From Draconibacterium sp. (GTDB lineage Bacteria; Bacteroidota; Bacteroidia; Bacteroidales; Prolixibacteraceae), in NCBI GenBank assembly GCA_047975435.1, contig JBKEDN010000292.1, positions 18,513 through 82,512 on the forward strand: 64,000 nt of DNA, read 5' to 3'. The translations under genes and the position numbers were made by a program. Of this stretch, positions 26,141-45,415 are shown one piece after another (the first letter of the stretch is position 1; each line of letters opens with the position of its first letter). Below the pieces are notes generated by a model that was given only the letters and a program-made list of their open reading frames with translations, had not been told where the DNA came from and searched no databases.

Positions 26141-26145
26141 TTCCC

Positions 26146-27412: not shown

Positions 27413-27555
27413 AATGACTGAAAAAGCGAAGATGTATGGATTGTCTTTGGATACCCGAAGATATCCCCCCGTTGGTGCGCGATTCCATCGCGTTCCGTTC
27501 ACAAATAAAATAGTGCACAACTCACAAATAGTAATAAAAACTTAAACCCGAACCC

Positions 27556-29256: not shown

Positions 29257-29916
29257 TTAGCAACCTCCGGCAGCAACGTTCGATTTTTGACGGCGCTGAA
29301 CCTGAACCGGTTTCTTTACTACTTGTGCTGCTTCGCTTCCGTCTTTTGGGGCGGCCATTTCAGCATAATTAAAACGGGCAATACCCTTTTTAAAGGAGTC
29401 ATCGTTTTGGGTAGTTGCCAGATTATCTTTGTGTTCGAAATAATAGCTATAACCACCCAACAGCAACTTTACATTGCTAAACCCCACCTGGCGAAACAAC
29501 ATCCACGGCCCGTTGGCCTGTAATTCGTCTTCGCCATAAAGGACAACAGTGGTTCCATTATCGCGCAATTCTTTTAAACGCTCTATGTTTTCTTCGCGTG
29601 TGAGGTTATTGGCCGACATATTTTCTGCACCCGGAATATGTCCCTGCCCAAAAACAAAATTATCGCGAATATCGAACAGCACAATGTTTTCAGGCTTGTT
29701 ACTGATTACATCTTCCAACTGCCAGGGATAGAAATAAGCGTCAGAATCGTCAAGCGCTGCTACGCTTTCGCTCATGCTTTTCTCGAAAGTAAGCAGCGGT
29801 TTGTGCACGGTTAAGAAACCAACAATCAGAAGAACCACAAAAGCAGAAAGGGCAATAAGTGTTCTCCACGGATTTAATTCATGTATATGCATGGTATTGA
29901 TTTTTTCAAGTTTCAA
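29257..29916 (-). CDS. Membrane-anchored rhodanese-like protein lacking the catalytic Cys, with C-terminal ...KSNVAAGGC
   Basis: It has a TM anchor (LIALSAFVVLLIVGFL) and the rhodanese pattern VLFDIRDNFVFGQGHIPGAEN ... TVVLYGEDELQANGPWMLFRQVGF. Gly occupies the usual active-site Cys position. The TTG start at 29916 may be replaced by ATG 29892. Confidence 0.75.
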   Translation of the reverse strand: MKLEKINTMHIHELNPWRTLIALSAFVVLLIVGFLTVHKPLLTFEKSMSESVAALDDSDAYFYPWQLEDVISNKPENIVLFDIRDNFVFGQGHIPGAENMSANNLTREENIERLKELRDNGTTVVLYGEDELQANGPWMLFRQVGFSNVKLLLGGYSYYFEHKDNLATTQNDDSFKKGIARFNYAEMAAPKDGSEAAQVVKKPVQVQRRQKSNVAAGGC

Positions 29917-30531
29917 TTAACAACCACCGGCTGCCACATTCGATTTCTCTCTTCGTTGCACCTGAACTTCCACTTTCGAAACATCGGAAGGTTCGGCACT
30001 TGCCCCCGTAAAATACATTTGTGCTCCTTTTCTGAATGTGTAGGTTTCCTGGTCGGCATACGGAGCATCGCCCGAAGGTTGCTGCGGATCGATAATGGTC
30101 TGTATCCAGCCGTTTAACCCTCCCCGCATAACATATGTTCCTTTGTAACCCAGCCTTTTGGTAAGTACCCACATTTGGTCGGCCTTAATATCGTCGTCGG
30201 ATACAAACACTACTTTGGTTCCCTTAATTCCGAAGTAAGAAAGATTTCCCGGGCTCAACAGGCTGTCGAGCGGAATATTAACAGAACGTGGCAACGAATA
30301 ATTTTGAAAATCTTCTTCATTTCTCACATCTACCAGCATCAGCGAAGGATCACCTTTGATAATCATTTTTGCGACCTGGTCGGTAGTTACATACCTTGTT
30401 GGCTGAATAATTTCCTGAAGCAGAATTTCGGGATCAACCTGGTTGGGTTCATCGTTCATTTTCAGGAAAAGGGTTCCAACGGCCAAAACAAGCATTAGTA
30501 TGGTTAGAAAAATATAATTTCTGTTCATCAT
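29917..30531 (-). CDS. Membrane-anchored rhodanese-like protein lacking the catalytic Cys, with C-terminal ...KSNVAAGGC
   Basis: It has a TM anchor (IFLTILMLVLAVGTLFL) and the pattern LMLVDVRNEEDFQNYSLPRSVNIP ... KVVFVSDDDIKADQMWVLTKRLGY. Ser occupies the active-site Cys position. It is a paralogue of the adjacent gene. Confidence 0.75.
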   Translation of the reverse strand: MMNRNYIFLTILMLVLAVGTLFLKMNDEPNQVDPEILLQEIIQPTRYVTTDQVAKMIIKGDPSLMLVDVRNEEDFQNYSLPRSVNIPLDSLLSPGNLSYFGIKGTKVVFVSDDDIKADQMWVLTKRLGYKGTYVMRGGLNGWIQTIIDPQQPSGDAPYADQETYTFRKGAQMYFTGASAEPSDVSKVEVQVQRREKSNVAAGGC

Positions 30532-30532
30532 T

Positions 30533-31135
30533 TTAGAATTTATATTGTTTCATATTCTTACGAACACGTTTTTCGATAAACATGGTTACCCAGAAAGCAG
30601 CCAGCGCAACAACCGTAAAGGCCAACGCAAAATAGGATGCCGGGATTCCGGTAACATCGGTAAGTGTTACATTTCCGAGCGAGCCACTATTGTAAAAGTT
30701 CTCGAACAGCGGGAAAGCCAGCGAAAAACCGAAAATTCCGACGTACAAGCCAATTGTAAAAAACAAGGCATCGAGCTTGCCAATGGCCACACCGGTAAAA
30801 CTGGTTCCCGGGCAATAACCGCCTATTATAAAGCCAAATCCCATGATAATTCCACCAACGATCATCGGCCCTAAATAAGTAGGAAGTATAAATATTTTGG
30901 AAAGATCGAGCCAGCCCAGGTAATCAAAATACATGATGCCCACCATGGCAACGATAAGTGCGGTAAAAAATACGCGAAGTACAACAAAGTTATAGCCATA
31001 AAATACTCCGGCCAGATTTCTTGACGACGAGAATCCGGAGGCTTCCAGAATAAACCCGAAAGCAATTCCGATTAAAATAGCGATTAAAAAATCCCAGCCT
31101 TCGCCAATTATACCGTTAGGAATTAAAGGTCCCAT
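30533..31135 (-). CDS. YeeE/YedE family sulfur-compound transporter, half-size subunit
   Basis: Polytopic 200-aa protein with the motif GGYCPGTS. Confidence 0.8.
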   Translation of the reverse strand: MGPLIPNGIIGEGWDFLIAILIGIAFGFILEASGFSSSRNLAGVFYGYNFVVLRVFFTALIVAMVGIMYFDYLGWLDLSKIFILPTYLGPMIVGGIIMGFGFIIGGYCPGTSFTGVAIGKLDALFFTIGLYVGIFGFSLAFPLFENFYNSGSLGNVTLTDVTGIPASYFALAFTVVALAAFWVTMFIEKRVRKNMKQYKF

Positions 31136-31232: not shown

Positions 31233-31769
31233 CTATATCCACAATTTTCTAAAGAAGTAGGCGATGATGTACCCGGTTCCAAAAATGCCGAACATGACAA
31301 TTACACCTCCCAGTGCAAACGTTGAAGTTCCGCTAAGTGCGGCGCCACTTGTACATCCACGCCCGAACTGGCTGCCAAGGCCAAACAATGCTCCTCCGAT
31401 GATCGCCAGAATCCAGCGTTTTTTACTGCTTATTTGCGGGCCATGATCGGTTCTGAATTTACCAACACGGCCAAAAATTAACCCGGAAAGCAGACCACCA
31501 ATCAACACACCTAGCGACTCGAAAACCAACCAGGTGTACATCGGTGAATGATCGTCGCTGACAAACTTGCCCATGTAATTATTGGCTTTTGTAGCCGTTG
31601 GGGCAATTGTATTCGAGGTAGTTACCACAGCACTTTTGATGGCGCCGCTGGCTCCAAGCCCTCTGCCTGTAATATAAACTGTTGCAAGTATCAGCAGCCC
31701 CAGCAATACTCCTCCCAGGTAGGGATTGATATATTTGGGCTGACTCCCAATGCTATTATTTACGTTCAT
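31233..31769 (-). CDS. YeeE/YedE family sulfur-compound transporter, half-size subunit
   Basis: Polytopic 178-aa protein with the motif GRGCTSGA. Confidence 0.8.
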   Translation of the reverse strand: MNVNNSIGSQPKYINPYLGGVLLGLLILATVYITGRGLGASGAIKSAVVTTSNTIAPTATKANNYMGKFVSDDHSPMYTWLVFESLGVLIGGLLSGLIFGRVGKFRTDHGPQISSKKRWILAIIGGALFGLGSQFGRGCTSGAALSGTSTFALGGVIVMFGIFGTGYIIAYFFRKLWI

Positions 31770-31788: not shown

Positions 31789-32730
31789 TTAGTACAAATA
31801 GCGTGTTATCTGGCCGGCCTCTACCATGATAAAGCGGAACATTAAACCGCCAATCAGAATCATTACCGGAGGCAACCACTTTGGTACATGAAACCCCCAA
31901 AGTTCAAGTGTTTCCATAATTGCCGGGAACACCAGTCCGAGAATAACCACAAATACCCAGAAACTTACGGTAAATGGACCACCTAGGAACAAATTAGCTG
32001 CTTCTATTGCCGTTTGTGATCCGGCCTTGAAACCCATAAAAAGGTGAACGATTAAAAAGAGTTCGATCACAATAAAAATCAAATCGATCCGGCTCAGTTT
32101 TTTACGTTCCTTTTCATCTTTACTGATCCAGATAATGGTTGCCAAACCAGTTGAGAATCCAGAAACCAGGAACAATGGCCCTAAAATAGAAGTGTTCCAA
32201 AGCGGGCGGGCATTAAAGGCCGACAACAAAATACCGGTATAAACACCAAGAATAATAGCGTAGATCATCATTGCCCATGCAAAATATTTCCGGTTTTTGA
32301 TTACCCACGCTTCAAATTGTTCCAGCAAACTAAATTTCCAGTTCCACCCGGGAACCAGTTCTTTCATGTAACTGGCTACCCAAATAAAAGAGAGTGGCGA
32401 AATTACCATCAACGTCCACGCTCCCCAACTCATCGGAGATTCCAGCCTTACAGTTGTATATAACTGCCAGAAAAACAGTTTGTGTTTCAGATCGAGAAAC
32501 AGCGCAAACAAACCCAGCACCAGCGCAATAGGTGCAATAATGGGAGCCCACTTTACCGTTGCCTGCATTTGTTTTTCTTTTCCACGAACCACATAAAATC
32601 CGGCAAAGAAAAGAATACCGGCTGCCAAACCTCCTAAAAACAAATAGAGAGGAATTTGCCAATGCCAGATATTGAGGTATGGATCAATATTCGGAATATT
32701 ACGTCCGCTTACAAATAATTCTTCCTTCAT
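31789..32730 (-). CDS. NrfD/PsrC-type quinol-interacting membrane subunit
   Basis: 313-aa polytopic membrane protein encoded directly after the 4Fe-4S subunit. Confidence 0.8.
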   Translation of the reverse strand: MKEELFVSGRNIPNIDPYLNIWHWQIPLYLFLGGLAAGILFFAGFYVVRGKEKQMQATVKWAPIIAPIALVLGLFALFLDLKHKLFFWQLYTTVRLESPMSWGAWTLMVISPLSFIWVASYMKELVPGWNWKFSLLEQFEAWVIKNRKYFAWAMMIYAIILGVYTGILLSAFNARPLWNTSILGPLFLVSGFSTGLATIIWISKDEKERKKLSRIDLIFIVIELFLIVHLFMGFKAGSQTAIEAANLFLGGPFTVSFWVFVVILGLVFPAIMETLELWGFHVPKWLPPVMILIGGLMFRFIMVEAGQITRYLY

Positions 32731-32742: not shown

Positions 32743-33276
32743 TTAGGTAAGAAAATACAATTGAGGTTTTGTACCGGCTTCGGGTGCCAGCACTTTCCAT
32801 TTACGGTCTTTGATGGCCAGTGAAACATCACTGTTTGGATCGTCGAGATCACCAAAATGCAAACACCGCGTTGGACAAACATCCACACAGGCCGGGTTTT
32901 GTCCTTTCTGAACACGGTGTAAACAAAAGGTACATTTATCCACATAACCATCCGGGTGCGAATAACGCGCATCGTACGGGCACGACTGAATACAGGCACC
33001 GCAGCCAATACATTTATCGTGGGTAACGGTTACAATCCCGCCTTCCTCGATGTGGCTGGCGCCGGTAGGACAGCAACGTACACAAGGAGAATTATCGCAA
33101 TGATTACAACGTTCGGAACGAAACTCCAGGCTGATGCTTGGATACGTTCCGTCCACACTTTCCACAATCCAGTCGCGGCAATAGCCATGAGGCACATTAT
33201 TTTCTGTTTGACAGGCTACTACACAGTCGCCACATCCGACACACTTTTTGGTGTCAATTGCCATTGCATATCTCAT
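32743..33276 (-). CDS. 4Fe-4S ferredoxin-type electron transfer subunit (PsrB/PhsB/DmsB-like)
   Basis: Cys clusters CVGCGDCVVAC, CNHCDNSPCVRCCP, CIGCGACIQSCP and CTFC...CVDVCP. Its start overlaps the stop of the catalytic subunit (ATGA). Confidence 0.88.
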   Translation of the reverse strand: MRYAMAIDTKKCVGCGDCVVACQTENNVPHGYCRDWIVESVDGTYPSISLEFRSERCNHCDNSPCVRCCPTGASHIEEGGIVTVTHDKCIGCGACIQSCPYDARYSHPDGYVDKCTFCLHRVQKGQNPACVDVCPTRCLHFGDLDDPNSDVSLAIKDRKWKVLAPEAGTKPQLYFLT

Positions 33277-35528
33277 GCTTTAACCTCCTTTCCTTCACGC
33301 GCAGGTTCTTCTGTTAAAAAAGTTATAAAGTTTCCTCTCATACCGGTTCCTCCCATTACCGGATCAACTGCCACGTTAGTGATCATTTCAGTATCGGCTG
33401 CGCCGCGCCCGAATGCCCTCGACAGTTTTTTGTTATTGTGCCCAAACCCGTGAACCATGTAAACCGAATCCCAGCGAATCCGTTCTGTTACACGCACCTT
33501 CACCGGAAACGATGTTATAGCGCCATCCTGGTTTTTCAGCCACACTTTCTGGTCTTTTTTCAAGCCCCACAAATCAGCCACTTTTGGGTTTACCCAAACA
33601 CTGTTTTCACTCATCAAATCCGAAAGGTTTGGATTGTTTGACGTACGGCTGAACGTGTGCATTGGCGCACGGCCGTAAATGAGGCGGTAGAAATTCTGCG
33701 GTGGTTCCGGGTGCCTGGTATATTTTGGCATCGGATCAAAACCGTGGTCGGCAAAATCAGTGGAATACAATTCTACTTTACCGGTATTTGTATTGAACGT
33801 GAAGTCTTCCCCGTCGCCCAGGTACAACGGGCCACTTTTCCTCGGGAACTTCTTTATCCCAATCTTTTTCATTTCTTCGAGCGAGGTACCCAGCTTTTTC
33901 AGCTGCCAGTCGATCACTTCTGCATAATCATCGTAATTGAAGTAATCATGCAAACCGAGGCGTTCGCCAATTTGTTTGGCAATCCACCAACCCGGTTTCG
34001 AGTCGTATTTTGGCTCGATGGCCGGCATTCGCAAAGCAATGTTGGGTTCGCGGTTTGCTGCCGAACGAATTACATCGTATCGTTCCAGGTAAGTTGCTTC
34101 CGGAAATACCACATCAGCATAACCTGTTATATCCATTGGCATTGTATCCATAACTGCTATAAATTCTACTGCTGCGGCAGCTTCTTTAAACAGCGGTTTA
34201 TCCGGCATCGACAGTGGCAAATTGGTTCCTGCCACCAGCCATGCTTTTACCTGGTGCTCGTAATTATATCGCGGGATTGATGCTTTCAACAGCTCGGTGG
34301 TAATCCCCATTGTTGCCAGCGGATATTTTCCGTAATTCAGGTTCTTCCAGGTCCATTCCGGCTCGGGATATTCCGGTTGCGGAAATTCCGGGATTGAAAC
34401 ACCTTCGGGCATGTACAAGCTTCCACGTTTCCCCCAGGCGCCCAACAAGGCCGAAAGAATGGCCATTGCACGTTCGCGCTGGGTATCGTCACCATACCAA
34501 ACCACATGACGCCCCGGATGAATGACTACTGCCGGCGCTGCTCCCGCCATTTCGCGGGCTGTCCTGCGAATCTGTTCCGGCTCAATGGTGGTAATTCCGT
34601 ATGCCCATTCGGGAGTCATGCTTTTCACATGCTCTTTCAGATAATCAAAACCGAATGTATATTTTTCAACAAATTCCTTGTTGTAGAGCCCTTCGTAAAT
34701 CAACACATGTATCCAGGCCATCAGCAAGGCAATATCAGTTGCCGGCTTAATCGGGAGCCAGTAACTTGAATGTGCGGCTGCCGTTGATAAACGGGGGTCA
34801 ACTGTAATAATGGTTGCACCATTATCAATTGCTTCCGACATTTCCTGTACCTGCGAATTGTGCATGTTCTCACCAATGTGCGAACCGATCAGAACCAAAC
34901 AACGGGTATCCCGGATGTCGGTTGACTCAGGAGAACCAACATACGCACCAAAAGTTGAATAATAGGCAGAAGAACGTGGTCCGCGACAATTGGCAAAAGC
35001 TGGTTCAGCATTGCTTTCAGAACCATAGGCACGCAAAAGATGATGGAAGTGGCCGCCCGGAGTACCGTGATTAAATAACCCAAAAGCTTCCGGCCCGTAT
35101 TTCTCTTTTACCTCTTTCATTTTGCCGGCTACCAAATCCAGCGCTTCTTCCCAGCTTGCTTCCCGGAAATACTGGCTGCCGTCTTTTTTTGTTTCCCTGA
35201 TCAGCGGTGTTTTCAAACGGTCTTCGTCGTAAACCATCCCAACACCGCCTGTTCCTCTCGGGCATAAACGACCGTTACAATGCGGATCTTCCTTATTCCC
35301 AATCACTTTCCTGATTCGGCCATTCTTATCAACGTAGGCCCATCCGGCGCATTTCCAGAAACAAACTTCACAGTAAGTAGGATACGGAGTCAGGTCTTCG
35401 TCACTCACGGGCCCGTCCGATTCCGATTTGAACAAGCCAAACCCGTTCGAACCAAAAGCTTTCAAGCTTAAAGCTGCCGCCCCGGTACCAACTGCTGAAA
35501 TTTTGATAAAATCCCGTCTTGTTTTCAT
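33273..35528 (-). CDS. Tat-exported molybdopterin oxidoreductase catalytic subunit (Psr/Phs/Ttr/Arr-type; substrate unresolved)
   Basis: Start trimmed to MKTRRDFIKISAVGTGAAA, which carries a twin-arginine motif. The N-terminal FeS cluster is CEVCFWKCAGW...CNGRLCPRG. The mature protein is about 750 aa. Confidence 0.88.
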   Translation of the reverse strand: MKTRRDFIKISAVGTGAAALSLKAFGSNGFGLFKSESDGPVSDEDLTPYPTYCEVCFWKCAGWAYVDKNGRIRKVIGNKEDPHCNGRLCPRGTGGVGMVYDEDRLKTPLIRETKKDGSQYFREASWEEALDLVAGKMKEVKEKYGPEAFGLFNHGTPGGHFHHLLRAYGSESNAEPAFANCRGPRSSAYYSTFGAYVGSPESTDIRDTRCLVLIGSHIGENMHNSQVQEMSEAIDNGATIITVDPRLSTAAAHSSYWLPIKPATDIALLMAWIHVLIYEGLYNKEFVEKYTFGFDYLKEHVKSMTPEWAYGITTIEPEQIRRTAREMAGAAPAVVIHPGRHVVWYGDDTQRERAMAILSALLGAWGKRGSLYMPEGVSIPEFPQPEYPEPEWTWKNLNYGKYPLATMGITTELLKASIPRYNYEHQVKAWLVAGTNLPLSMPDKPLFKEAAAAVEFIAVMDTMPMDITGYADVVFPEATYLERYDVIRSAANREPNIALRMPAIEPKYDSKPGWWIAKQIGERLGLHDYFNYDDYAEVIDWQLKKLGTSLEEMKKIGIKKFPRKSGPLYLGDGEDFTFNTNTGKVELYSTDFADHGFDPMPKYTRHPEPPQNFYRLIYGRAPMHTFSRTSNNPNLSDLMSENSVWVNPKVADLWGLKKDQKVWLKNQDGAITSFPVKVRVTERIRWDSVYMVHGFGHNNKKLSRAFGRGAADTEMITNVAVDPVMGGTGMRGNFITFLTEEPAREGKEVKA

Positions 35529-36097
35529 ATAAGAAATATTTTTTAGCAGTAAGGGTAAAATGTTTACCATCCCACTATTCCATTCATCTTACAATATGTA
35601 TATCTAAATATTTATATTTCTAGATATCGTCGCAAATATATAAAGGTTTTGGTAGAAGAAAGCTGTCAGTTGATAATTTGAAACCATTAAAAATAAGCAA
35701 TTTAGATCAATTTTAACCAAGAGCAAAATAAAATACATATGATTATTTCAATATATATCTAATACCTGTAAAACAATTGATTACATCACATTATTTGCAT
35801 TATATTTAGTTAAAAACAAAACACCTTTACGTATTTTATTAAGAACAAATGGCACAATAATATCAAAATACTAAACAACATAAGTTCAATAACTAATTAT
35901 TGGGAATATCCTCTAAACCAAAGACATCTAACTCAATTGTACTGTTTGCAGAAGCATAAAAAAAGACAGACGGTTTCAATTTGTTCCAAATTATCTCATA
36001 TTTGCCAAACCAATAGGAGTAGTGTGTCTGCCAAAACAAGATTTAATGATGTTTAATAAAGACACATAATCCGGGTTTCAAACAAAAATATTAGCAG

Positions 36098-36484
36098 ATG
36101 AACAACAGAAGGACATTTCTGAAAATAGCCATTACCGGAATCGTTGCTTTTTTTGTGTTTATCTGGAACAAGCTAACCTTAACCCATTTGGAGGTTTCGC
36201 GGCAAAAAGAAAGTACCCTTCCATTTAATAAGAATAAGGAAGTTTCGTTTGCCGAGCACTATATTATTGTTACACAAAATAATTCCACCACCGTTTTTTC
36301 GGCACATTGCACACACCTGGGGTGCAAAATTGACAAATCGGAAGGCGACCGCCTGGTTTGTCCCTGTCATGGTTCGGAATACGATTTACAGGGAAAAGTA
36401 CAAAAAGGCCCGGCCTACAAAAACCTGGAGGTTTTACCTTCGCGAATTTCTGACGATGGAAAAAATATCATAATCGGAGCCTGA
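36098..36484 (+). CDS. Rieske [2Fe-2S] protein with Tat signal
   Basis: MNNRRTFLKIAITG, then CTHLGCKI ... CPCHGSEY. Confidence 0.85.
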   Translation: MNNRRTFLKIAITGIVAFFVFIWNKLTLTHLEVSRQKESTLPFNKNKEVSFAEHYIIVTQNNSTTVFSAHCTHLGCKIDKSEGDRLVCPCHGSEYDLQGKVQKGPAYKNLEVLPSRISDDGKNIIIGA

Positions 36485-36485
36485 G

Positions 36486-39185
36486 ATGACCAAAAAGAAC
36501 AACAAAACAACCTTTGGCACTTTGGCGCTGGCCATGTTTTGGCTGGTGGTCCTTTCGGGTGTTGCTTTGGCTATTCCGTTCGATGTAAAAAATCCGTACC
36601 TGAGCATCAGCAACATAATGGTTGTCAATCCATGGGCTTCGTTTACCCGGAATTATCATTACTGGAGTTCCCAGTTTTTTCTGATTTTCAGCCTCATCCA
36701 TTTTTACGAGCATTATCATTACAAGGAAAAAATCGGGTTCAAAAAAGGCATTTCGTTTCGTCTGAGTTTAGCGGTGTTGATTATTTTTTTAGCTATGATC
36801 ACAGGCTTTCTGTTAAAGGGCGATGCCGACAGTCAGCAAGCCCAGCAGATACTGCAAACACTTGCAGAACGTTTGCCACTAATTGGAAAATCGCTGGCCT
36901 TTTCATTGTTAGGCGATCCGGAAAGCTACCAGTTGATTTATGTACACCACATTGCCACCTTCACCATTTTTATAACCATTGCCATGGTGGAACACGGTCG
37001 CAAATTCTGGCCTCCGGCATTGGATTTTGTTGCATCGGCAGCAGGGCTTCTCATCTTAAGTTATCTTTTAAGCGCTCCGCTTCACGACAATCTGAACCCG
37101 GCAGTAAAAGGCCCCTGGTACTTTGTAGGTTTTCAGGAAATACTGCACTGGCTCAAACATCCCGAATGGTCGCTTTTGATCTTTCTGGCGGTGCTTGTAT
37201 TGGTTTATCTCGCCAATTCGACAAGAGGCAAAACCATGTTTTTGAGTAAACGATCATTACTTATTTTTGTCGGTTTGTATTCCATCCTCACCATTGTCGG
37301 ACTATTTTTCAGGGGACAGAACTGGAAGTGGACAACACCGTGGAGCCCGGAATACAAATTTGAAGTGCTTCATAATTTCAGAACGCCAAGGGTAAATTTT
37401 TCACCCGATTTTGAATTGAATGAAGCCATTGCATCTCCGGTAATCCAGGGAAGAAAAGAAAGTTGCCTGGCCTGCCACTCCGGAACACATGGTTTTACCG
37501 ATTCGCACCGGGCCGAAGCAATCGGCTGTATTTCCTGTCATGCCGGAAACCCGTTTGCCACGGGAAAAGAGCAGTCGCACCGTAACATGATCCTTATTCC
37601 GGGAAACCTGGCAAGCGCCCGACAGTCGTGCGGGACCACACAATGCCATCCGCAAATTACAGAGCGGGTACCTACCGGATTAATGGCTACTTTAAGTGGC
37701 ATGATCAGCGTAAACCGTTTTGTTTTTAATGAACAGGATAATCCTGATGAACCGGCACATGTCAGCCAGTTAGGGAATTCTGCTGCTGATGAACATTTAC
37801 GAAACCTGTGTGTGCGCTGTCACCTCGGAAATCCCAAAACCGAAGCGGGGCCGGTAAACGAGTTTAGCCGTGGCGGAGGATGTCTGGCCTGTCATTTAAA
37901 CTACAGTGCTGAAGCGGAAAAAGAACTGGCGGAAAACAACGACGAAATCATGCGGGCACATCCTGAAATAAGCCTGAAAATCACGAACAAGCATTGCTTT
38001 GGCTGCCACAGCCGCTCGGGACGGATTTCGACCAATTACGAAGGCTGGCACGAAACCACACTTACCAAAAACGAAATGCCCGACTCGGTGAATTACCGGC
38101 TGATTGAAGATGAACGTGTATTTGTGAAAAAACAGGAAGATGTACACCACAAATTGGGGCTGGAATGCATCGATTGCCATCATTCGTACGAACTGATGGG
38201 CGATGGCAATCATTATGCACACCAGGAAAACCAGCAGGATGTTCAGTGCTCGGATTGCCACATTAACGGGGAGCCGCGGACCATTGCTGCTGAAGATATG
38301 GACAATGAATCGGCGGTTATTGCTGCACTTCGATTTGGAAATATTGCCGGGAAAAAATTATTGTTGACCGAAAAACACAAGCGGGCGCTAATCAACACTT
38401 TTGTGGAAAACGACTCGGTGTATTTTATCACCAAAAACAGCGGTGTGAAAATGACGATGCGGGCGCCGGCAGCAGTTTGTTCCCGAAACGAGGCCCATTC
38501 CAGCCTGGCATGTTCCAGTTGTCACACTTCGTGGGCACCTACCTGTATTGGCTGCCACAATGCTTACGATTCCAACGAACGCGGATACAACATGATTGAA
38601 AACCGGGAGCAAAAAGGCACCTGGGTGGAATACATCGGGCAATACGAGGCCAAACTCCCGACACTGGGCGTTCGAAAGTCAAAAGACAAAACAGAAGTAG
38701 TTCCGGTAATCCCGGGAATGATTATGACCATTGATATGAAATCATATTCAGGCAACGAAAATGATCCCGAAATTTTCCATCGTTTGTTTGCTCCTGCTTC
38801 TCCACACACCACTTCAGCTAAAGGAAGAAGCTGCGTAAGTTGCCACAACGACCCGGTGGCATTGGGCTACGGAGAAGGCGAGCTTAACTATATGATTATA
38901 AACGGAAAAGGAACCTGGGAATTCAGCTCGCAATATGCAGCTGACCCGCACGACGGACTACCGGCCGACGCCTGGATCGACTTCCTGAAAACCCGTACTG
39001 AAAAGGTGGCCACCCGCTCCGATCTTTTCCCTTTCGACGAGCAACAACAGCAACGCATTCTCACTGTGGGCGCTTGTCTTACCTGTCATGATGAGAAATC
39101 GGCTGTGATGCAACAGAGTTTGAATCATTTTGATGAACTTCTCAAAACCCGGAGCCAGCAGTGTATTCTTCCTGAGTGGAAGTAA
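36486..39185 (+). CDS. Cytochrome b (b6 + subunit IV-like) fused to a multiheme cytochrome c
   Basis: The N-terminal TM region has His pairs H-x13-H (NYHYWSSQFFLIFSLIH) and H-x14-H (HHIATFTIFITIAMVEH), plus a PEWY-like GPWYFVGFQEIL. The C-terminal ~600 aa has 11 CxxCH motifs (CLACH, CISCH, CVRCH, CLACH, CFGCH, CIDCH, CSDCH, CSSCH, CIGCH, CVSCH, CLTCH) and one CGTTQCH. Its start is 1 nt after the Rieske stop. Confidence 0.85.
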   Translation: MTKKNNKTTFGTLALAMFWLVVLSGVALAIPFDVKNPYLSISNIMVVNPWASFTRNYHYWSSQFFLIFSLIHFYEHYHYKEKIGFKKGISFRLSLAVLIIFLAMITGFLLKGDADSQQAQQILQTLAERLPLIGKSLAFSLLGDPESYQLIYVHHIATFTIFITIAMVEHGRKFWPPALDFVASAAGLLILSYLLSAPLHDNLNPAVKGPWYFVGFQEILHWLKHPEWSLLIFLAVLVLVYLANSTRGKTMFLSKRSLLIFVGLYSILTIVGLFFRGQNWKWTTPWSPEYKFEVLHNFRTPRVNFSPDFELNEAIASPVIQGRKESCLACHSGTHGFTDSHRAEAIGCISCHAGNPFATGKEQSHRNMILIPGNLASARQSCGTTQCHPQITERVPTGLMATLSGMISVNRFVFNEQDNPDEPAHVSQLGNSAADEHLRNLCVRCHLGNPKTEAGPVNEFSRGGGCLACHLNYSAEAEKELAENNDEIMRAHPEISLKITNKHCFGCHSRSGRISTNYEGWHETTLTKNEMPDSVNYRLIEDERVFVKKQEDVHHKLGLECIDCHHSYELMGDGNHYAHQENQQDVQCSDCHINGEPRTIAAEDMDNESAVIAALRFGNIAGKKLLLTEKHKRALINTFVENDSVYFITKNSGVKMTMRAPAAVCSRNEAHSSLACSSCHTSWAPTCIGCHNAYDSNERGYNMIENREQKGTWVEYIGQYEAKLPTLGVRKSKDKTEVVPVIPGMIMTIDMKSYSGNENDPEIFHRLFAPASPHTTSAKGRSCVSCHNDPVALGYGEGELNYMIINGKGTWEFSSQYAADPHDGLPADAWIDFLKTRTEKVATRSDLFPFDEQQQQRILTVGACLTCHDEKSAVMQQSLNHFDELLKTRSQQCILPEWK

Positions 39186-39223: not shown

Positions 39224-39255
39224 AAAAAAACCTTGAAGATTTTGATTCCTCAAGG
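39224..39255 (-). terminator. Rho-independent terminator after the lipocalin-like gene
   Basis: On the minus strand, accttgagg-aatcaaaat-cttcaaggt is followed by ttttttt. Confidence 0.5.
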
Positions 39256-39308
39256 TCAATAAGTTTATGATATAAACCGAATTTCTGGTAAAACCAAAGA
39301 AAGTCCGC

Positions 39309-39755
39309 TTAATCCATTCGAACATATTTTTCGATGTTGCAATTGTTTTTATCATAATTACCATTTTTGTCAAGTGGAGAAAACAGGTAAACCTGATAAA
39401 GTGTGTCTCCCTTTATTTCGAGATACTGTTGCACTTTCTTTCCCAGAAAGTTGGGAACATTGTGATAGAGCACTTCTTCTGTATAAACATGCCCGGATAA
39501 ATCGTAAGTCCCTCCTCCGTAATTGTTGATAAGTTGCCCACCATTGACACTTTTGCCAACAAACATAAAATATTTATCTGACCAGGTTTTGAGTTGTTCG
39601 CCATTGGCCTGATCCAGGATTGAGATTCTACTTTGTCCGTTTCGGACTAATTCCTGACTGATAAGTTTCCATGTTCCGTTGAGTTTTGTTTTATCGCTTT
39701 TAAAGCTGAAAAGAGCAAAAACTACTGCTAGTAAAATAAGTGTTTTGAGTCTCAT
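39309..39755 (-). CDS. Secreted lipocalin-like small protein (DUF4488-like impression)
   Basis: Signal peptide MRLKTLILLAVVFALFSF, then LNGTWKLIS. The family call is tentative. Confidence 0.5.
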   Translation of the reverse strand: MRLKTLILLAVVFALFSFKSDKTKLNGTWKLISQELVRNGQSRISILDQANGEQLKTWSDKYFMFVGKSVNGGQLINNYGGGTYDLSGHVYTEEVLYHNVPNFLGKKVQQYLEIKGDTLYQVYLFSPLDKNGNYDKNNCNIEKYVRMD

Positions 39756-39960: not shown

Positions 39961-40680
39961 CTAAACAAATTTTTCGCGTTTTTGCAGATTAAACAAACCA
40001 TAGAGAGTAAACACCAACATACCGATTGCAAGGAAAATCCTGTTCTTCCGGATGGTGCCTTCCCAAATTACTTCGTTCAGGTTGTTGGGAATATCAAAAG
40101 GGTTCAGAAAAGGATTCCACTGCATATTCCGAATAGAATCCTGCAAAATCAGTATTGCAACTCCGATAAGTACCATTGTTACAGCAGTTCCGTTACCATT
40201 TTTTACCACTGTGGAAAACATAAATGCCATGGATCCAAGAAAAACGATCGGAAACATTAACTGATACGCCATCTCCATTATATTCACTTTGTATAACAAT
40301 ACGGAGGCTAAACCCGAGAACAAACCGATAATTAAAAATACCAGTGTGTAAATCATTACCAACCGTACCAGCCATACTTTGTACCGGTAATTAGGTATTC
40401 CAAACAGAATTTCGAGCATCCGGGAATCGTCATCGTTTTGAATCCCGAAAACTGACGGATAAAAGATGAGCAATATTCCGGGAAAAATCAGCAATTCATA
40501 AACTGTTCCATCGGTAATTGTATTGTTTTCCAATACCCGGGTAACGGCAACAAAAAGGAAAAATGCCAAAGCTGCCAGCAAAAACCAGATAAAGCGGTTT
40601 GCAAAAATGATCTTCAGATTGTAACGGATCATCTTAATCAGGATAAATAACCTGTTTTTTATATTGAATTTTGAAGCCAT
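39961..40680 (-). CDS. ABC-2 type membrane permease
   Basis: About 6 hydrophobic helices. Start trimmed to MASKFNIK (ATG 40680), 1 nt after the stop of the RND-ABC fusion gene. Confidence 0.6.
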   Translation of the reverse strand: MASKFNIKNRLFILIKMIRYNLKIIFANRFIWFLLAALAFFLFVAVTRVLENNTITDGTVYELLIFPGILLIFYPSVFGIQNDDDSRMLEILFGIPNYRYKVWLVRLVMIYTLVFLIIGLFSGLASVLLYKVNIMEMAYQLMFPIVFLGSMAFMFSTVVKNGNGTAVTMVLIGVAILILQDSIRNMQWNPFLNPFDIPNNLNEVIWEGTIRKNRIFLAIGMLVFTLYGLFNLQKREKFV

Positions 40681-40681
40681 T

Positions 40682-43600
40682 TTAAACAAAATCTTTAAGT
40701 AAGCATAAATAAGCATCTTCCAGATGAGGAGAAACATTTACCGCATCGGGGGTTGGTTTGTCTTTTGCCAGGCAGCGGACTTTTATATTTTCTCCGTCGC
40801 GCATGTGGTGAACAATCATTTGCTTATTGGCCATGTTATCAAATTCTTTTGCCGGAACCGAAAATTGCCATACAAATTTGTTTCCCATATTAACCATATC
40901 GCTAGGTGTCCCGAAATACTTCAGGTCTCCACGGTTAATTACGGCAACCTGGTTACATGAGCTCGAAATATCTTCGATAATATGCGTTGAGAAGATTACA
41001 ATTCTCTCGCGGCTGAGTTCTACCAAAAGGTTACGGAAACGGATACGTTCGCGCGGGTCGAGGCCAGCTGTTGGCTCATCAACAACCAAAATACGCGGCA
41101 AATTCAATAATATTTGTGCAATTCCGATTCGTTGTTTCATACCCCCTGAGAAGGATCCGATTTTATCATTCCGGCGTTCGTACATATGCACGTTTTTCAG
41201 TACATAGTCCAAACGCTCGTTTCTTACTTTGGTATCCTTTATTCCTTTTAGGATTGCCTGGTAATCGAGAAATTCCCATGCCGACATGTTTTCGTAAGTT
41301 CCGAAAGCCTGTGGCAGATAGCCGATCAATCCCTGCAACTCCTCCCGATACTTTTGTGTATCAAGTCCGTTGATCCAGATTTTCCCGTAGCTCTGTTCCA
41401 GAATACCAGTAATAATTCGCATCATGGTTGATTTTCCGGCCCCGTTTGGCCCCAGTAGCCCAAACATTCCGGTTTTTATTTCAAGCGAAACTCCGTTTAG
41501 CGCCCTGAAAGGTTTCTTACGTTTACCAACCACCGGTATCTGGCGTATCATTGTAAAATAGGCACGGCGCAAACCACCAAGCCGTCCTTCAATACGGGCA
41601 ATGTTCAGGTTCTTTTTCTGAATGTATTCGGCCGAGCTGTAAATAATCAGCAGGATGTACCAGATGATACCTACAAAAATCACCATTCCGAGGTTATCCC
41701 AGTTTTTGAAGAAAACGAAAAGAAAGACTGCCGGAACTCCCCAGAAAATCAGGTTATAAATCCACTTGTTCAATTTCAGGTACAGGTTTTTCCCACTTGC
41801 TTCGTGTTTATTAATAAGCACCTGCTGTACCGGAATCCGTAAGAACATAAGAAAGAAAAATACACCATGAGAAAGAATCCACATCCAAAGCCCGCTTTCC
41901 AGGTAAAAGAATGTAAAATAGACCAGGAATCCGAAAAGAGGCAGTTGCCAAACCATATCGTAAAAATCGCGCAGATGTTTGTAATCGTTTGTTAATCCGG
42001 CACGTTCCCTTATTTTAATTCCCGATTTCCACTCGCGAACAAAACGAGAGTCGCGGTCATAAATCTTTACCAGTTTTTGTACTTTGATCCGGATTGGCTC
42101 ATTTTCGTCGATTACCTTTTCATTGGCTTGGCGAAGGCTTGTCATTACAAATGCAACAACACCCGGCACCAGAATAATGAGGAGCATAAAATCGAGTAAT
42201 TGCCAGAGAAAACTATCTACTTCGAAGTAAACCAGCACTGCACCAACAACAAAAACAGTCAGCATTCCGGCCTTTAAACCCCAATGCAACGATTTTATCC
42301 AGTTTAGCGAATTTTCAAGCCCTGCATAAAGCGTTGGAATAAACACCAGTGTAAGTATTGTACTTAACGAAAGGCCCCCAATTACGGTAATGGCAAACGG
42401 TGCCCCAATAGCGCCAACATATTCAGCCTGTCCCATTGCCAGCGGGAATAAAGCTACAATGGTTGTAATGGCGGTAATAAGAATCGGGCGTACACGCGAA
42501 AGTCCTGCTGTCATTAATGCCCTTGACTTTCGGAAGCCACGTTTTCGAAGAATATTGGTATAATCGATCAGTATAATACCATTGTTTACCACCACCCCAA
42601 TCAGAATAATAAAACCCATTAAAGTGTTGGCATTGAAAAGACTGTTCCCGGTAAAAATAAGTGCCAGGAAAGAACCGATGGCTGCCAGCGGAATCGAGAA
42701 CATCAGTACAAATGGTGTTGAAAGCGATTCGAAAACCGAAGCCAGAATCATCAGGATCAGAATAAAGGCGGCGGCAATCAGAAATTTGAATTCGGAGTAC
42801 TGGTCTTCTTCATGTATAACCTGTACCGCCACTCCCGGAGGCAATTTGTATGCCCCGATAATGTCGTCGATTTCAAGCCGGTAAGCCTCCAGCAGATCTT
42901 TTGAATCTTCTGCTTCACTCACAAAACGGTAATTCAGTTCGATCTGTTTTTCCTGGTTTACACGTGTTATACTGGCCATTCCCTGGGCATATACCAGGTC
43001 TGCCAGGTCCTGCAATTCATAAGTGGCCCCCTGGTTATTACTAATTTGCAGGCGGCGCAAGTCTTCAATTCCTTTTTGCGAATTATCTTCTTCTTCCTCC
43101 CCTTCCGGAAGCTTCTCCTTTATTACAATTTCATATTCTTCTGTTCCTTGTTTGAAATTTACTCCCGAAGTAAATTCACTTGTAAAAGTTCGAAGGTCGG
43201 ATGAGATATTATTTAGTGTAACTCCGTATTCAGTAAGTAAAAGCTGATTAAAAAAGAGGTGCACTTCGGGCCGGTTCCGCGATACACTCACATTGGCCCG
43301 GCGGATTGATTCGAGATCTTCGATGTAATAAAGCAAATCTTCAGCAACGCCTTTCATTACGTCAAAGTTTTCTCCTTTGATAACAATGCGTTCCTGGTTA
43401 CTTCCAATTCCCATAAACTGGGCAAATCCCTGTGATCCGGAGCGTCCTCCTCCGCCACCACCTCCGCCACCGCGGAAACTGGAGCTGGAAGTAGGCGCCT
43501 CCAGGCTAATCTCTGCCTGTGAAATACCTTTTACACGATCTTCCACATCTTTCTTTATTTCGGCAATGCTACGGTCGTCAATGTCTTTGTAATCGTCCAC

Positions 43601-45415
43601 CAGAATAAAGGTCAGAATTGCTTCTTCTTCCTCAATCTTTGAAATCAGGTCTTTCTTTTCCTTTACATCTTCCAACCGGCTTTCCACCTCGGCAACAACC
43701 TTGTCGGTTGCTTCGAGTGTTGAACCGGTGGGCATGGTAACATACACCGAGAATTGTGTTTCTTCCACTTCGCTCAGGTTGTTTACACTTACTGCCAGCA
43801 CAATAAATACGGTTAGGAAGAATACAACGATTGCCCCGATAATGGTTTTTCCCGGAACACGCATACTTGCTTTCAGTAATAAAATGTAAATCTGAATGAT
43901 GCGGTTATTCGTCGTTACTTTCTCGTAAAATATGTTGTGCTGCCGTTTGCCTTTTAAGAGCAAATGTGCGCCCATTGGTATTAGCAACAGGGCAACAAAC
44001 AGCGAAACCATGAGCGTTGAAATAATGGAAACCCCCACATGATTTCCCAGCAGTTTTACCATGTAATCGGTAGAGAATACAAAAGGCAGAAAAACAGTGA
44101 TGGTGGTAAGCGTAGCAGCTAAAATAGAACGCCATACTTCCTGAGTTCCCTGTGTAACAGACTTTTCGGGGCTCATGTGATTCCCCGATAAGCGATAAAT
44201 GTTCTCCAGTACCACAACACTGTTGTCGAGCAGCATCCCGATTGCCAAAACCAAGCCTACCAGTGTTAAGCTGTTCAGCGAAATATTAAAAGCATAAAAC
44301 AGGTTGAAGGCAGTAAAAACCGAGATGGGCATTGCCAGCGCAATAAACGATACAATTCGCATGTTTTTGAGGAACATCCACAAAACAAAAATTGCAAGTA
44401 AACCACCCACCAATGCCAGGTTAATAATCTGATCGATATTTTTCTCCATCGTTTCGGCCAGGTTAGTTTGCACTACAATCTCCACATCTTTTGATGCCAG
44501 CTTTTCATTCAATGCCGCTATCTGGTCCTGTACTTTATGCGACAAATCGATAAGATTGGCCTGCGAGTCGCTTACCAATAACATCGAAACCGCATCGAGC
44601 CCGTTTATACGACTAATGGAAGTCTCTTCCTTTACACCAAAAAACACATCGGCAACATCTTTTAAAAAGATCGGACCGTCGGCCACCACAATATTTTCGA
44701 TGTCTGAAACATTGTCGTACTCTGCCGTTACATGTACAAAGTATTTCTTATCCGACTCGTGCAAATAACCTGCAAAAGTGCGGTTTTGCGAGTTTCCGGA
44801 AATAGCACTACTAATTTGCGCCGGGGTGATTCCGTAGGCTTCGCAGGCAGCAGCATCGTAGGTAACTTCTATCGAGCGCTCTTTCCCTCCGTAAACCGAA
44901 ACAGAGGCTACTCCGTCAACATTTTCGATTTCTGAAGTTATTTCCTGGTCAACAATATTACGAACGCGGTCAACACCACCACTCCCTCGAACCTGCAATT
45001 CCATAAACTGGTTGGTGAGTTGCTCAATATCCACTTTGTTAACCACCACAACAAAATTATCGTCAAGACTGGCACTTGCCATGTCAATCTTTTCCTGCAA
45101 TTTCAGGAATGTATATTTAAAGTTGACGTTTTGTTTGAAATTAACCTGAATGGAAGCCGACTGATTATTAATAAACGACTCCATGCTTTCAATGCCTTCC
45201 ATGGTGCCAATGGCACCTTCAATCGGGATCACTGCCTGGTTTTCCATGTATTTTGGATCTACCTGGGTGCGCGACTGAATCTGCACATAAAGCATGGGCA
45301 GTTCGGCATTGGGCATTAATTCCACCGGAAGCCTTTTATAGGAGATATAACCAAGCATGGTTAACCCTAAAAAGAGCATACTGATGAATATTTTTCTATG
45401 TATGATGAATTTCAT
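40682..45415 (-). CDS. RND (AcrB-type) efflux permease covalently fused to an ABC transporter ATP-binding domain
   Basis: Single 1577-aa ORF. The N-terminal ~1075 aa have RND topology and the TM4 motif IGMLLDNSVVVLENI. The C-terminal part has Walker A GLLGPNGAGKST, a Q-loop (YLPQ), the signature FSGGMKQR, Walker B LVVDEPTAGLD and an H-loop (FSTHII). Confidence 0.85.
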   Translation of the reverse strand: MKFIIHRKIFISMLFLGLTMLGYISYKRLPVELMPNAELPMLYVQIQSRTQVDPKYMENQAVIPIEGAIGTMEGIESMESFINNQSASIQVNFKQNVNFKYTFLKLQEKIDMASASLDDNFVVVVNKVDIEQLTNQFMELQVRGSGGVDRVRNIVDQEITSEIENVDGVASVSVYGGKERSIEVTYDAAACEAYGITPAQISSAISGNSQNRTFAGYLHESDKKYFVHVTAEYDNVSDIENIVVADGPIFLKDVADVFFGVKEETSISRINGLDAVSMLLVSDSQANLIDLSHKVQDQIAALNEKLASKDVEIVVQTNLAETMEKNIDQIINLALVGGLLAIFVLWMFLKNMRIVSFIALAMPISVFTAFNLFYAFNISLNSLTLVGLVLAIGMLLDNSVVVLENIYRLSGNHMSPEKSVTQGTQEVWRSILAATLTTITVFLPFVFSTDYMVKLLGNHVGVSIISTLMVSLFVALLLIPMGAHLLLKGKRQHNIFYEKVTTNNRIIQIYILLLKASMRVPGKTIIGAIVVFFLTVFIVLAVSVNNLSEVEETQFSVYVTMPTGSTLEATDKVVAEVESRLEDVKEKKDLISKIEEEEAILTFILVDDYKDIDDRSIAEIKKDVEDRVKGISQAEISLEAPTSSSSFRGGGGGGGGGRSGSQGFAQFMGIGSNQERIVIKGENFDVMKGVAEDLLYYIEDLESIRRANVSVSRNRPEVHLFFNQLLLTEYGVTLNNISSDLRTFTSEFTSGVNFKQGTEEYEIVIKEKLPEGEEEEDNSQKGIEDLRRLQISNNQGATYELQDLADLVYAQGMASITRVNQEKQIELNYRFVSEAEDSKDLLEAYRLEIDDIIGAYKLPPGVAVQVIHEEDQYSEFKFLIAAAFILILMILASVFESLSTPFVLMFSIPLAAIGSFLALIFTGNSLFNANTLMGFIILIGVVVNNGIILIDYTNILRKRGFRKSRALMTAGLSRVRPILITAITTIVALFPLAMGQAEYVGAIGAPFAITVIGGLSLSTILTLVFIPTLYAGLENSLNWIKSLHWGLKAGMLTVFVVGAVLVYFEVDSFLWQLLDFMLLIILVPGVVAFVMTSLRQANEKVIDENEPIRIKVQKLVKIYDRDSRFVREWKSGIKIRERAGLTNDYKHLRDFYDMVWQLPLFGFLVYFTFFYLESGLWMWILSHGVFFFLMFLRIPVQQVLINKHEASGKNLYLKLNKWIYNLIFWGVPAVFLFVFFKNWDNLGMVIFVGIIWYILLIIYSSAEYIQKKNLNIARIEGRLGGLRRAYFTMIRQIPVVGKRKKPFRALNGVSLEIKTGMFGLLGPNGAGKSTMMRIITGILEQSYGKIWINGLDTQKYREELQGLIGYLPQAFGTYENMSAWEFLDYQAILKGIKDTKVRNERLDYVLKNVHMYERRNDKIGSFSGGMKQRIGIAQILLNLPRILVVDEPTAGLDPRERIRFRNLLVELSRERIVIFSTHIIEDISSSCNQVAVINRGDLKYFGTPSDMVNMGNKFVWQFSVPAKEFDNMANKQMIVHHMRDGENIKVRCLAKDKPTPDAVNVSPHLEDAYLCLLKDFV

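Follow-up and report, generated by a model that had tools for sequence, protein, structure and literature searches.

Among members of the bc superfamily, the Rieske/cytochrome b complexes that are partnered by multiheme cytochromes are poorly understood. The closest described system is Cbc6/ExtMNOPQ(S) of Geobacter sulfurreducens, which forms part of extHIJKLMNOPQS (Cbc6 is GSU2930-2935; bioRxiv 10.1101/2021.04.15.440034) and has been known since 2010 as a putative, uncharacterised bc complex (PMC2825233). Its components include the 12-heme cytochrome c ExtM (68 kDa), the Rieske protein ExtO (14 kDa), the b6-like cytochrome b ExtP (23 kDa) and the subunit-IV-like ExtQ (17 kDa) (PMC5877670). 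The same components are found in the 64,000-nucleotide stretch of a Draconibacterium sp. contig analysed here (JBKEDN010000292.1, positions 18,513 to 82,512; hereafter the window), in which a gene for a Rieske [2Fe-2S] protein of 128 amino acids (aa) (36098..36484, plus strand) is followed by a gene for an 899-aa protein (36486..39185, plus strand) that joins an ExtP-like cytochrome b, an ExtQ-like subunit-IV part and an ExtM-like dodecaheme cytochrome c. As judged from the sequence, a Rieske/cytochrome b plus 12-heme architecture is near certain. The function that we infer for it, with moderate confidence, is that of an electrogenic menaquinol oxidase feeding the periplasmic reduction of sulfur compounds, probably of the tetrathionate/thiosulfate type. 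The unfused form of the complex and the clade of its cytochrome b were known already; the variant described here differs in being a triple fusion, found in new phyla and in a consistent sulfur context.

Classification was based on profile matches together with published motif and clade definitions. On this basis the 899-aa open reading frame (ORF) is a fusion of counterparts of Geobacter ExtP, ExtQ and ExtM, which supply its best-matching NCBIfam models. ExtP covers aa 9-170 (51 bits against an equivalog cut-off of 290), ExtQ covers aa 180-285 (expectation value (E) 6e-6; 26.5 bits against a cut-off of 150), and ExtM aligns over aa 321-881 with profile positions 16-590 of 599 (E 4.4e-73; 247 bits against an equivalog cut-off of 800); the other NCBIfam match to the membrane part is a weaker one to cytochrome b6 (34 bits). 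Judged by its score, the heme domain is a homologue of ExtM and not an orthologue by the NCBI criterion. ExtO, in turn, corresponds to the Rieske protein encoded upstream. In both organisms the module adjoins a rhodanese and a periplasmic sulfur-compound reductase; however, ExtP, ExtQ and ExtM are separate proteins in Geobacter and one polypeptide in the window, which also lacks ExtN (10-heme), ExtS, the ExtI porin and ExtKL/MccSep and has only rhodaneses in common with proteins of the ExtHIJKL kind. The neighbouring reductase here is a molybdoenzyme, and the host belongs to the Bacteroidota rather than the Desulfobacterota.

The N-terminal 290 residues are a complete cytochrome b, consisting of a b6-like four-helix di-heme bundle (aa 1-175; 36486..37010, plus strand) and a subunit-IV-like part with three transmembrane helices (aa 176-290; 37011..37355, plus strand); this is concluded because Pfam, the alignment of ligands with b6, the presence of seven helices and the Foldseek results agree. 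Pfam Cytochrome_B (E 6.3e-8) and Cytochrom_B_N_2 both exceed their gathering cut-offs. When a profile of 13 homologues was compared with the PDB, the best solved relative was cytochrome b6 (E 1e-9), with the heme ligands H58/H72 (H-x13-H) and H155/H170 (H-x14-H) aligning with b6 H86/H100 and H187/H202, and these histidines are kept in 101-105 of 105 fused homologues. The full-length AlphaFold2 model, built from 39 close homologues, is poor (mean predicted local distance difference test (pLDDT) score 56, predicted template modelling score (pTM) 0.43), and therefore only its membrane part was used, in which seven long helices are predicted with moderate confidence. The top 50 Foldseek matches to this part are all full-length bc1 cytochrome b (310-350 aligned columns, template modelling (TM) score on the target about 0.5). 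Lys/Arg-rich loops alternate between the seven predicted helices, which together place the C-terminus on the periplasmic side and thereby the heme domain where cytochrome c1 or f would be.

The initial annotation had read a Tat-type Rieske gene ending one nucleotide before the long ORF, the two histidine spacings, a GPWYF motif and 11 CxxCH motifs plus one CxxxxCH from the letters alone, and each of these was recovered at the position given for it. A tetraheme quinol dehydrogenase of the NapC/NrfH/CymA type, the alternative it had itself raised for the N-terminal part, is ruled out by the seven helices, the cytochrome b fold and the b-heme ligands; matches to proteins of the NrfA, ActA or DmsE types are local heme-motif matches only. 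In further comparing the protein to b6f and Firmicute b6c complexes, cytochrome b6 as the best solved match, the H-x14-H spacing on helix D and the 4 + 3 helices are shared. Unlike in those complexes, subunit IV is joined to b6 in one chain, GPWY takes the place of PEWY/PDWY as the Qo motif, and the 12-heme domain replaces cytochrome f or a mono- or di-heme cytochrome c. The b6 residue Cys35, which binds heme cn, faces Thr9 in an ungapped extension of the b6 alignment, and as this threonine is invariant in homologues, the Qi site is predicted not to be of the b6f/b6c type.

The Qo motif itself, KGPWYF (aa 208-213, nucleotides 37107-37124, with GPWYF at aa 209-213), is strongly conserved: G209-P210-W211-Y212 is kept in 105 fusions, the fourth position being Y or F. 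By this motif and the signature of its Rieske partner, the cytochrome b is placed in the published GPWY clade (Kao & Hunte 2014, PMC4122944), with which it shares the GPWY motif, an S-Y/S-F Rieske protein, occurrence in Ignavibacteria and a C-terminal c-type fusion. The clade as published lists delta-Proteobacteria, Ignavibacteria and Nitrospinae, not Bacteroidota, and the fusion noted there in 2014, in the cytochrome b of Ignavibacterium album, was described as 'fused to a triheme cytochrome c7 domain' (PMC4122944), in contrast to the 12-heme ExtM-type domain of the window. That description probably under-counted the same 12-heme fusion, because Pfam detects only c7/c3 fragments in the 12-heme domain.

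The Rieske protein contains a twin-arginine translocation (Tat) signal/anchor (RRTFLK), box I (CTHLGC) and box II (CPCHGSEY), the disulfide cysteines included, and matches Pfam Rieske at E 4.7e-14; the closest PDB sequences are the Rieske subunits of b6f and bc1 complexes. These features show a protein predicted to be exported by Tat and anchored in the membrane by its N-terminal helix. Box II of the window protein includes a Ser-Tyr signature, and both the boxes and the Ser are kept in 70/70 homologues, the second signature position being Tyr or Phe. Homologous loci were collected in a genome scan that used one genome per species, in which at least 539 genomes encode a relative, and the locus statistics given here rest on the 80 best loci (L001-L080). 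A Rieske homologue lies immediately 5' of the fusion gene in 70 of these 80, and most of the other ten lack upstream flank. In the window a single base separates the Rieske TGA stop (36482-36484) from the fusion ATG at 36486. Read-through or selenocysteine insertion at this TGA was considered and rejected: a 255-codon stop-free stretch (36485-37249, plus strand) continues the Rieske frame and overlaps coding sequence for cytochrome b in a different frame, and it is attributed to chance because its translation is junk and it is not kept even in a homologue whose fusion protein is 93% identical. At the other end, a hairpin with an 11-bp stem (39229..39257), found by a consensus scan only, lies in the gap that separates the fusion gene from a convergent gene for a 148-aa protein, and it probably marks the end of the two-gene operon. 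The 148-aa gene (39309-39755) has no family match, stands beside the fusion in only 2/80 loci and was set aside as unrelated to the finding; the genes downstream of it are efflux pumps, likewise unrelated to the Rieske/cytochrome b finding.

The remainder of the fusion (aa 321-899; 37446..39182, plus strand) is a periplasmic ExtM-type dodecaheme cytochrome c domain, with CxxCH motifs at aa 327, 348, 442, 466, 504, 561, 588, 676, 687, 783 and 864 and a single CxxxxCH at aa 382; scanning of six frames found no CxxCH in any other reading frame of the 64-kb window. The count of the initial annotation extends to the family, as exactly 11 CxxCH and one CxxxxCH occur in 99/105 fused homologues. Across 39 homologues (59-79% identity), none of the 12 heme motifs, the four b-heme histidines or KGPWYF varies. 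In an alignment of 82 sequences (27-77% identity), ten of the heme motifs show no variation and the other two almost none, and H65, H254, H371, H474, M100 and M271 (domain numbering) are invariant there as well. Two cysteines outside the motifs, C665 and C893, are invariant in 105/105 and 103/105 fusions, respectively; when they were checked for covariation as a pair or for a swap with M745, C665 was found to be replaced in about half of the stand-alone relatives of the domain and C893 to be retained. The heme domain modelled on its own by AlphaFold2 from the 82 diverse sequences has a mean pLDDT of 93.4 and a pTM of 0.91, and the C-terminal half of the model is rich in beta-strands. Foldseek found no significant match to this model in the PDB (best E 0.2, TM score at most 0.07), and sequence and profile searches against solved structures gave just local heme-packing matches to NrfA and ActA (E at least 7e-4), from which ExtM-type cytochromes appear to have no solved relative. 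With a confident model and no relative among solved structures, the 12-heme domain is a worthwhile structural target.

An identical protein (100%) is present in a Draconibacterium sp. metagenome-assembled genome (MAG), and at least 850 homologues of the fusion are found among clusters at 90% identity. The best 120 homologues are nearly all full-length (about 900 aa) with 59-79% identity, and homologues go under the names 'hypothetical' or 'cytochrome b N-terminal domain-containing'. The architecture had been presented as a rarity in Bacteroidota, a view that does not survive the survey, in which the 80 best species-level loci all encode fusions (some cut by contig ends) at 49-93% identity. Their hosts are Maribellus, Draconibacterium, Mangrovibacterium, Sunxiuqinia, other Prolixibacteraceae, Lentimicrobiaceae, unclassified Bacteroidales and 'Chlorobiota' MAGs, and cultured carriers include Maribellus comscasis (GM418_06260), Mangrovibacterium diazotrophicum and Draconibacterium spp. 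Among representatives at 50% identity, about 35-40 clusters at 37-45% identity are fused, the most distant named ones being from Ignavibacteria. The parts also occur separately, as stand-alone ExtM-like proteins (about 600 aa, 31-48% identity) and stand-alone cytochrome b plus subunit-IV proteins (about 300 aa), and unfused operons are found in which Rieske, cytochrome b (about 295 aa) and ExtM-like genes follow each other in this order, touching or overlapping (L083, L084, L085/L086). Because of these unfused operons and stand-alone parts, the window gene is seen as a fused form of a three-gene module that is widespread. No study of the fusion in Bacteroidota was found in literature searches.

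The Rieske/fusion operon is divergent from a Psr-like operon of seven genes on the minus strand. By Pfam and NCBIfam, this operon encodes a PsrA/PhsA-type molybdopterin catalytic subunit with a Tat signal (33273..35570; NCBIfam PhsA 439 bits), which matches Thermus PsrA (2VPW) over its full length at E 5e-187, a PsrB-type four-cluster iron-sulfur subunit (32743..33276), a PsrC/NrfD-type membrane quinol-binding subunit (31789..32730) and two YeeE/YedE-type 'sulphur transport' half-proteins (31233-31769 and 30533-31135), one of which weakly matches the TsuA thiosulfate transporter. The last two genes encode membrane-anchored rhodaneses (29917-30531 and 29257-29916, minus strand), each ending in NVAAGGC.

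This arrangement is not peculiar to the window. Clusters within 10 kb were counted in those 62 loci that have 4 kb or more of DNA upstream, and 53-54 of them carry a Psr-type and/or an Otr-type cluster, mostly directly divergent. The Psr-type operon is present in 37/62 (38 with one in which a gene is disrupted), including loci whose fusions are only 49-51% identical to that of the window; an Otr-type octaheme cytochrome replaces Psr in 14/62, both types occur in two loci and neither in about eight. The octaheme neighbour matches Pfam PF11783 and Shewanella Otr (1SP3) at E 4e-130, and the loci that encode it also hold cytochrome b561, rhodaneses, a porin and Crp-type regulators. Psr and Otr contexts are interleaved across the tree of the fused protein, and the association is seen in two orientations and in homologues down to 49% identity. 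A link to the divergent Psr-like operon, which the initial annotation had put forward as possible, is supported by this recurrence of synteny in deeply diverged homologues and by a stand-alone relative of the 12-heme domain that is encoded within a Psr-like operon.

In Bacteroidales without a Psr neighbour, the fusion can stand beside a cluster that is parallel in kind to Geobacter extHIJKL (L049:1148-9049; also in L047, L050, L053, L056, L059, L075 and L079), comprising the Otr-type octaheme cytochrome, cytochrome b561, a rhodanese lipoprotein, a Porin_O_P porin, more rhodaneses and two Crp/Fnr-type regulators. Some of the Otr-type loci encode a 509-aa form of the cytochrome b561 partner in which it is joined to two PAS domains (for example L039:5979-7508), which suggests a redox-sensing membrane cytochrome.

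The same counts bear on whether the module might instead be a general-purpose complex III that feeds oxidases or nitrogen-oxide reductases, with the adjacency of sulfur genes an accident of gene order. In favour of this, unrelated genes adjoin the module in about 8 of the 62 loci and in the unfused operon L083, the potential predicted from the Rieske signature is one that is usual in aerobic chains (PMC4122944), and Otr-type enzymes also reduce nitrite and hydroxylamine, according to work cited in bioRxiv 10.1101/2025.11.18.688581. However, the association recurs with two unrelated reductase types, in both orientations and at identities as low as those given above, and the heme protein on its own, as well as the Geobacter system, shows the same sulfur association. 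No oxidase or nitrogen-oxide reductase genes were found in the window, and Bacteroidota are reported to use alternative complex III for their aerobic chain (PMC3362086). A general role of this kind is thus improbable.

Outside the fusions, a stand-alone ExtM-like protein that is 47% identical to the heme domain of the window is encoded by the last gene of a co-directional PsrABC-YeeE-YeeE-rhodanese operon, the PsrA of which is 55% identical to that of the window, and no Rieske or cytochrome b gene lies in the flanking DNA covered, about 8 kb on each side. Another stand-alone copy is located between a rhodanese and a Crp regulator. In Geobacter, extM is directly downstream of extKL, which encodes MccSep, a periplasmic pentaheme polysulfide reductase required for S0 respiration (bioRxiv 10.1101/2025.11.18.688581). 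From the Psr, Otr and MccSep contexts, the ExtM-type cytochrome is therefore linked to three unrelated sulfur-compound reductases, always together with rhodaneses. The rhodaneses that adjoin ExtM-type cytochromes end in Gly-Cys, usually as Gly-Gly-Cys (GGC) after a flexible or acidic tail. In Psr-type loci 67/68 rhodaneses have a terminal GGC, and in Otr-type loci terminal Gly-Cys is found in 9/9 and 6/8 for the two rhodanese types; those beside the stand-alone cytochromes end in DEGC, DFGC and EEGC (L081:6812-7441, 7624-7902; L082:23-709). No NCBIfam family covers the GGC-tailed rhodaneses. SoxY handles sulfur on a carrier arm with a terminal cysteine, and by analogy the GGC tail looks like an arm of this style.

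Taken with the features of the heme domain, these observations raise the prospect that the 12-heme domain is itself catalytic or sulfur-handling and that the Rieske/cytochrome b part is only one possible electron input, for example reducing or oxidising sulfane sulfur borne by the GGC cysteine of a rhodanese, or reducing tetrathionate, selenite or nitrite at a special heme. The stand-alone ExtM-like protein in a PsrABC-YeeE-rhodanese operon that has no Rieske/cytochrome b, the copy beside a rhodanese and the Gly-Cys ends of adjoining rhodaneses would all suit such a role, as would the invariant CxxxxCH site, the invariance or near-invariance of C665 and C893 in fusions and the large beta-rich part with no solved structural relative. 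For the distal ligation of 12 hemes there are only about eight invariant His and three invariant Met, and His/Cys-ligated hemes typify the sulfur-converting cytochromes TsdA, SoxAX and MccSep (bioRxiv 10.1101/2025.11.18.688581). An open or Cys-ligated heme is nevertheless hypothetical here, and about half of the stand-alone relatives have another residue in place of C665. Dedicated enzymes of the Psr type, the Otr type or MccSep are already encoded next door, and in Geobacter catalysis has been assigned to MccSep and not to ExtM. Catalysis by the domain is therefore considered unlikely. A broader proposal is that the fusion, the GGC rhodaneses and a Psr or Otr enzyme may form an undescribed respiratory system, widespread in Bacteroidota and Ignavibacteriota, in which sulfur would be carried on the terminal cysteine, the ExtM-type heme domain would act on or beside this carrier and the Q cycle would conserve energy from the respiration of tetrathionate, thiosulfate or polysulfide; this is offered tentatively, as less likely than not.

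Menaquinone is the quinone of Bacteroidota. If the module is a menaquinol oxidase feeding sulfur-compound reduction, as preferred here, menaquinol would be oxidised at the Qo site, from which one electron would pass through the Rieske cluster and the 12-heme chain to a periplasmic acceptor and the second would cross the membrane by way of hemes bL and bH to the Qi site, completing a Q cycle; since the second electron would cross the membrane, acceptor reduction would build proton-motive force. The partner in the window would be the PsrABC/Phs-type molybdoenzyme with its YeeE-type transporter and two GGC rhodaneses, in other Bacteroidales it would be the Otr-type octaheme enzyme with cytochrome b561, rhodaneses and porin, and in Geobacter the polysulfide reductase MccSep/ExtKL. 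The YeeE-type transporter and the rhodaneses may handle the thiosulfate that is produced.

The initial annotation had left the acceptor as periplasmic or extracellular, and only the periplasmic half is retained. Geobacter Cbc complexes are often assumed to be inner-membrane quinol oxidases of an extracellular route to Fe(III), Mn(IV) or electrodes, and a similar role could be imagined here, given the homology to Cbc6, whose proteins are more abundant in Fe(III) growth (PMC5877670), and a 12-heme chain that could span part of the periplasm. On the other hand, no outer-membrane porin-cytochrome genes and no other c-type cytochrome were found in the 64-kb window, the neighbours are enzymes for soluble substrates, and the ext cluster is now tied to sulfur/selenium reduction and not to metal oxides. 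Of the readings weighed here, an extracellular route is the one that we regard as highly improbable.

The choice of acceptor can be narrowed from the predicted redox potential of the Rieske protein. Rieske partners in the GPWY clade are predicted to be of Mid+ to high potential, with the Ser-Tyr signature predicting a value above about +260 mV (PMC4122944), and anammox Rieske proteins have been measured at +303 and +335 mV (PMC12954380). Given this high-potential signature, tetrathionate/thiosulfate (+198 mV), selenite/tellurite or nitrite would fit better than polysulfide. The Otr-type enzyme fits a moderately high-potential acceptor and a Psr homologue can as well, one such homologue respiring tetrathionate and thiosulfate in Shewanella (PMC12949373). 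In Campylobacter, Nap and Tor, two periplasmic reductases, receive electrons from a Rieske/cytochrome bc complex (QcrABC), which renders them electrogenic, and the menaquinol to tetrathionate span of 273 mV would permit electrogenic operation (PMC6195509).

Electrons could in principle flow the other way, with periplasmic oxidation of a sulfur compound delivering electrons through the heme chain and the Rieske protein to menaquinone in a Q cycle that consumes proton-motive force; the source would be thiosulfate oxidised to tetrathionate by the Otr-type enzyme, or sulfide or thiosulfate oxidised by the Psr-like enzyme. The non-acidic Qo motif combined with a high-potential Rieske signature recalls the APWY clade, for which reverse operation has been proposed (PMC4122944), and enzymes of the Otr/TsdA type are bidirectional (PMC6195509 and its references). 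Set against this, the Geobacter cluster is tied to the reduction of S0, selenite and tellurite (PMC5877670; bioRxiv 10.1101/2025.11.18.688581). The Crp/Fnr-type regulators that flank Otr-type loci fit anaerobic respiration, and the carriers, which are Bacteroidota and Ignavibacteria with an organoheterotrophic way of life, have no evident need to drive electrons uphill. The reverse direction carries a low probability on this evidence.

Several points also weigh against the proposed menaquinol oxidase. Its direction, partner and substrate are suggested by gene neighbourhood, which about 8 of the 62 loci and the unfused operon L083 do not share, having no sulfur genes nearby. Both of the neighbouring reductase systems own a quinol-binding subunit (PsrC/NrfD or cytochrome b561), and a second quinol oxidase is therefore not obviously needed. 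An ExtM-like gene in a Psr operon that has no Rieske/cytochrome b implies that the heme protein can act without a Q cycle, and its role may exceed that of a passive wire. The Qo motif is without the usual acidic residue (GPWY in place of PEWY/PDWY), as in the APWY clade proposed to run in reverse (PMC4122944), and a high-potential Rieske protein is hard to reconcile with low-potential polysulfide or with thiosulfate cleavage.

The proposed arrangement of a menaquinol oxidase with a periplasmic reductase has parallels in other Rieske/cytochrome b systems. The anammox complexes of Kuenenia (Kuste4569-4574 and Kustd1480-1485) likewise combine a b6-like cytochrome b, a subunit-IV-like protein and a hexa- or octaheme cytochrome c replacing cytochrome f, contain a high-potential Rieske protein in a menaquinone organism and are associated with an octaheme enzyme (PMC12954380). 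In contrast to these, the operon of the window has no NAD(P) oxidoreductase subunit and no flavoprotein was found nearby, while the heme protein is of the ExtM type with 12 hemes, is fused and stands in a sulfur rather than a nitrogen context. QcrABC of Campylobacter and Wolinella (PMC6195509) and the Rieske/cytochrome b of Caldithrix abyssi in a nap-hao cluster (PMC5317091) share the logic of electrogenic electron transfer from menaquinol to periplasmic anaerobic reductases. They differ in having a di-heme cytochrome c or no dedicated c subunit, in being unfused, in belonging to other clades with other Qo motifs and in serving nitrogen-oxide or trimethylamine N-oxide reductases. Alternative complex III (ActABCDEF), which is usual in Bacteroidota, also connects the quinone pool to periplasmic multiheme cytochromes, and an NrfD-type protein is a neighbour here too; however, it is an unrelated family with no Rieske protein, cytochrome b or Q cycle.

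The Psr-like and Rieske/fusion operons have in common an AT-rich divergent intergenic region of 527 bp (35571..36097). Within it a palindrome, ATATCTAAATAT-n4-ATTTCTAGATAT (35600-35627), lies inside a conserved block (35600-35645), and a second conserved block is located at 35676-35698; the blocks also take in a minus-strand TAnnTTTG-like Bacteroidota -7 box just upstream of the psrA-like gene. Their conservation extends to at least 70% of 29 Prolixibacteraceae loci, and they are considered a candidate operator, their regulatory role being predicted from this conservation. In a search for FNR/Crp boxes (TTGAT-n4-ATCAA), 62 matches were obtained where 58 would be expected, none of note in the intergenic region, and a sigma-70 promoter scan was at chance level, as expected for Bacteroidota promoters.

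Other features of the window were recorded. A low-GC island at about 24000-29000, with a GC content of 0.30-0.36 compared with about 0.43 elsewhere, borders the Psr-like operon at its end, contains ORFs for an HNH_2 endonuclease (24194-24952) and a PKD-domain protein (26294-27154) together with two unannotated ones (25223-26140 and 27556-28806), and is possibly acquired DNA. A 1577-aa ORF (40682-45415, minus strand) combines an AcrB-type resistance-nodulation-division (RND) transporter (aa 2-1031) with an ATP-binding cassette (ABC) transporter ATPase domain (aa 1306-1450) and overlaps the downstream gene for an ABC-2 membrane protein (39961-40737); joining RND and ABC parts in this way is unusual, and the ORF could be genuine or result from a missed stop. 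A second RND pump, a membrane-fusion protein and an outer-membrane factor are encoded at 45482-51294. A SusC/SusD pair (6948-10124 and 4915-6882), a typical Bacteroidota marker, and an M60-like peptidase (10671-13217) that bears a C-terminal sorting domain for type-IX secretion are also present, and these markers (4915-13217) agree with the assignment to Prolixibacteraceae.

The survey shows fused Rieske/cytochrome b to be common in sediment and anaerobic Bacteroidota and in Ignavibacteria, phyla to which alternative complex III is usually ascribed, and the family can be tested in cultured Maribellus, Draconibacterium and Mangrovibacterium. A respiratory logic based on the GGC carrier would, if true, also explain the Cbc6/ExtMNOPQ complex of Geobacter. 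If the proposed function of menaquinol oxidation for sulfur-compound reduction holds, abundant degraders of polysaccharides would gain extra proton-motive force from the respiration of tetrathionate, thiosulfate or sulfur, which would in turn have a bearing on cryptic sulfur cycling in sediments and guts.

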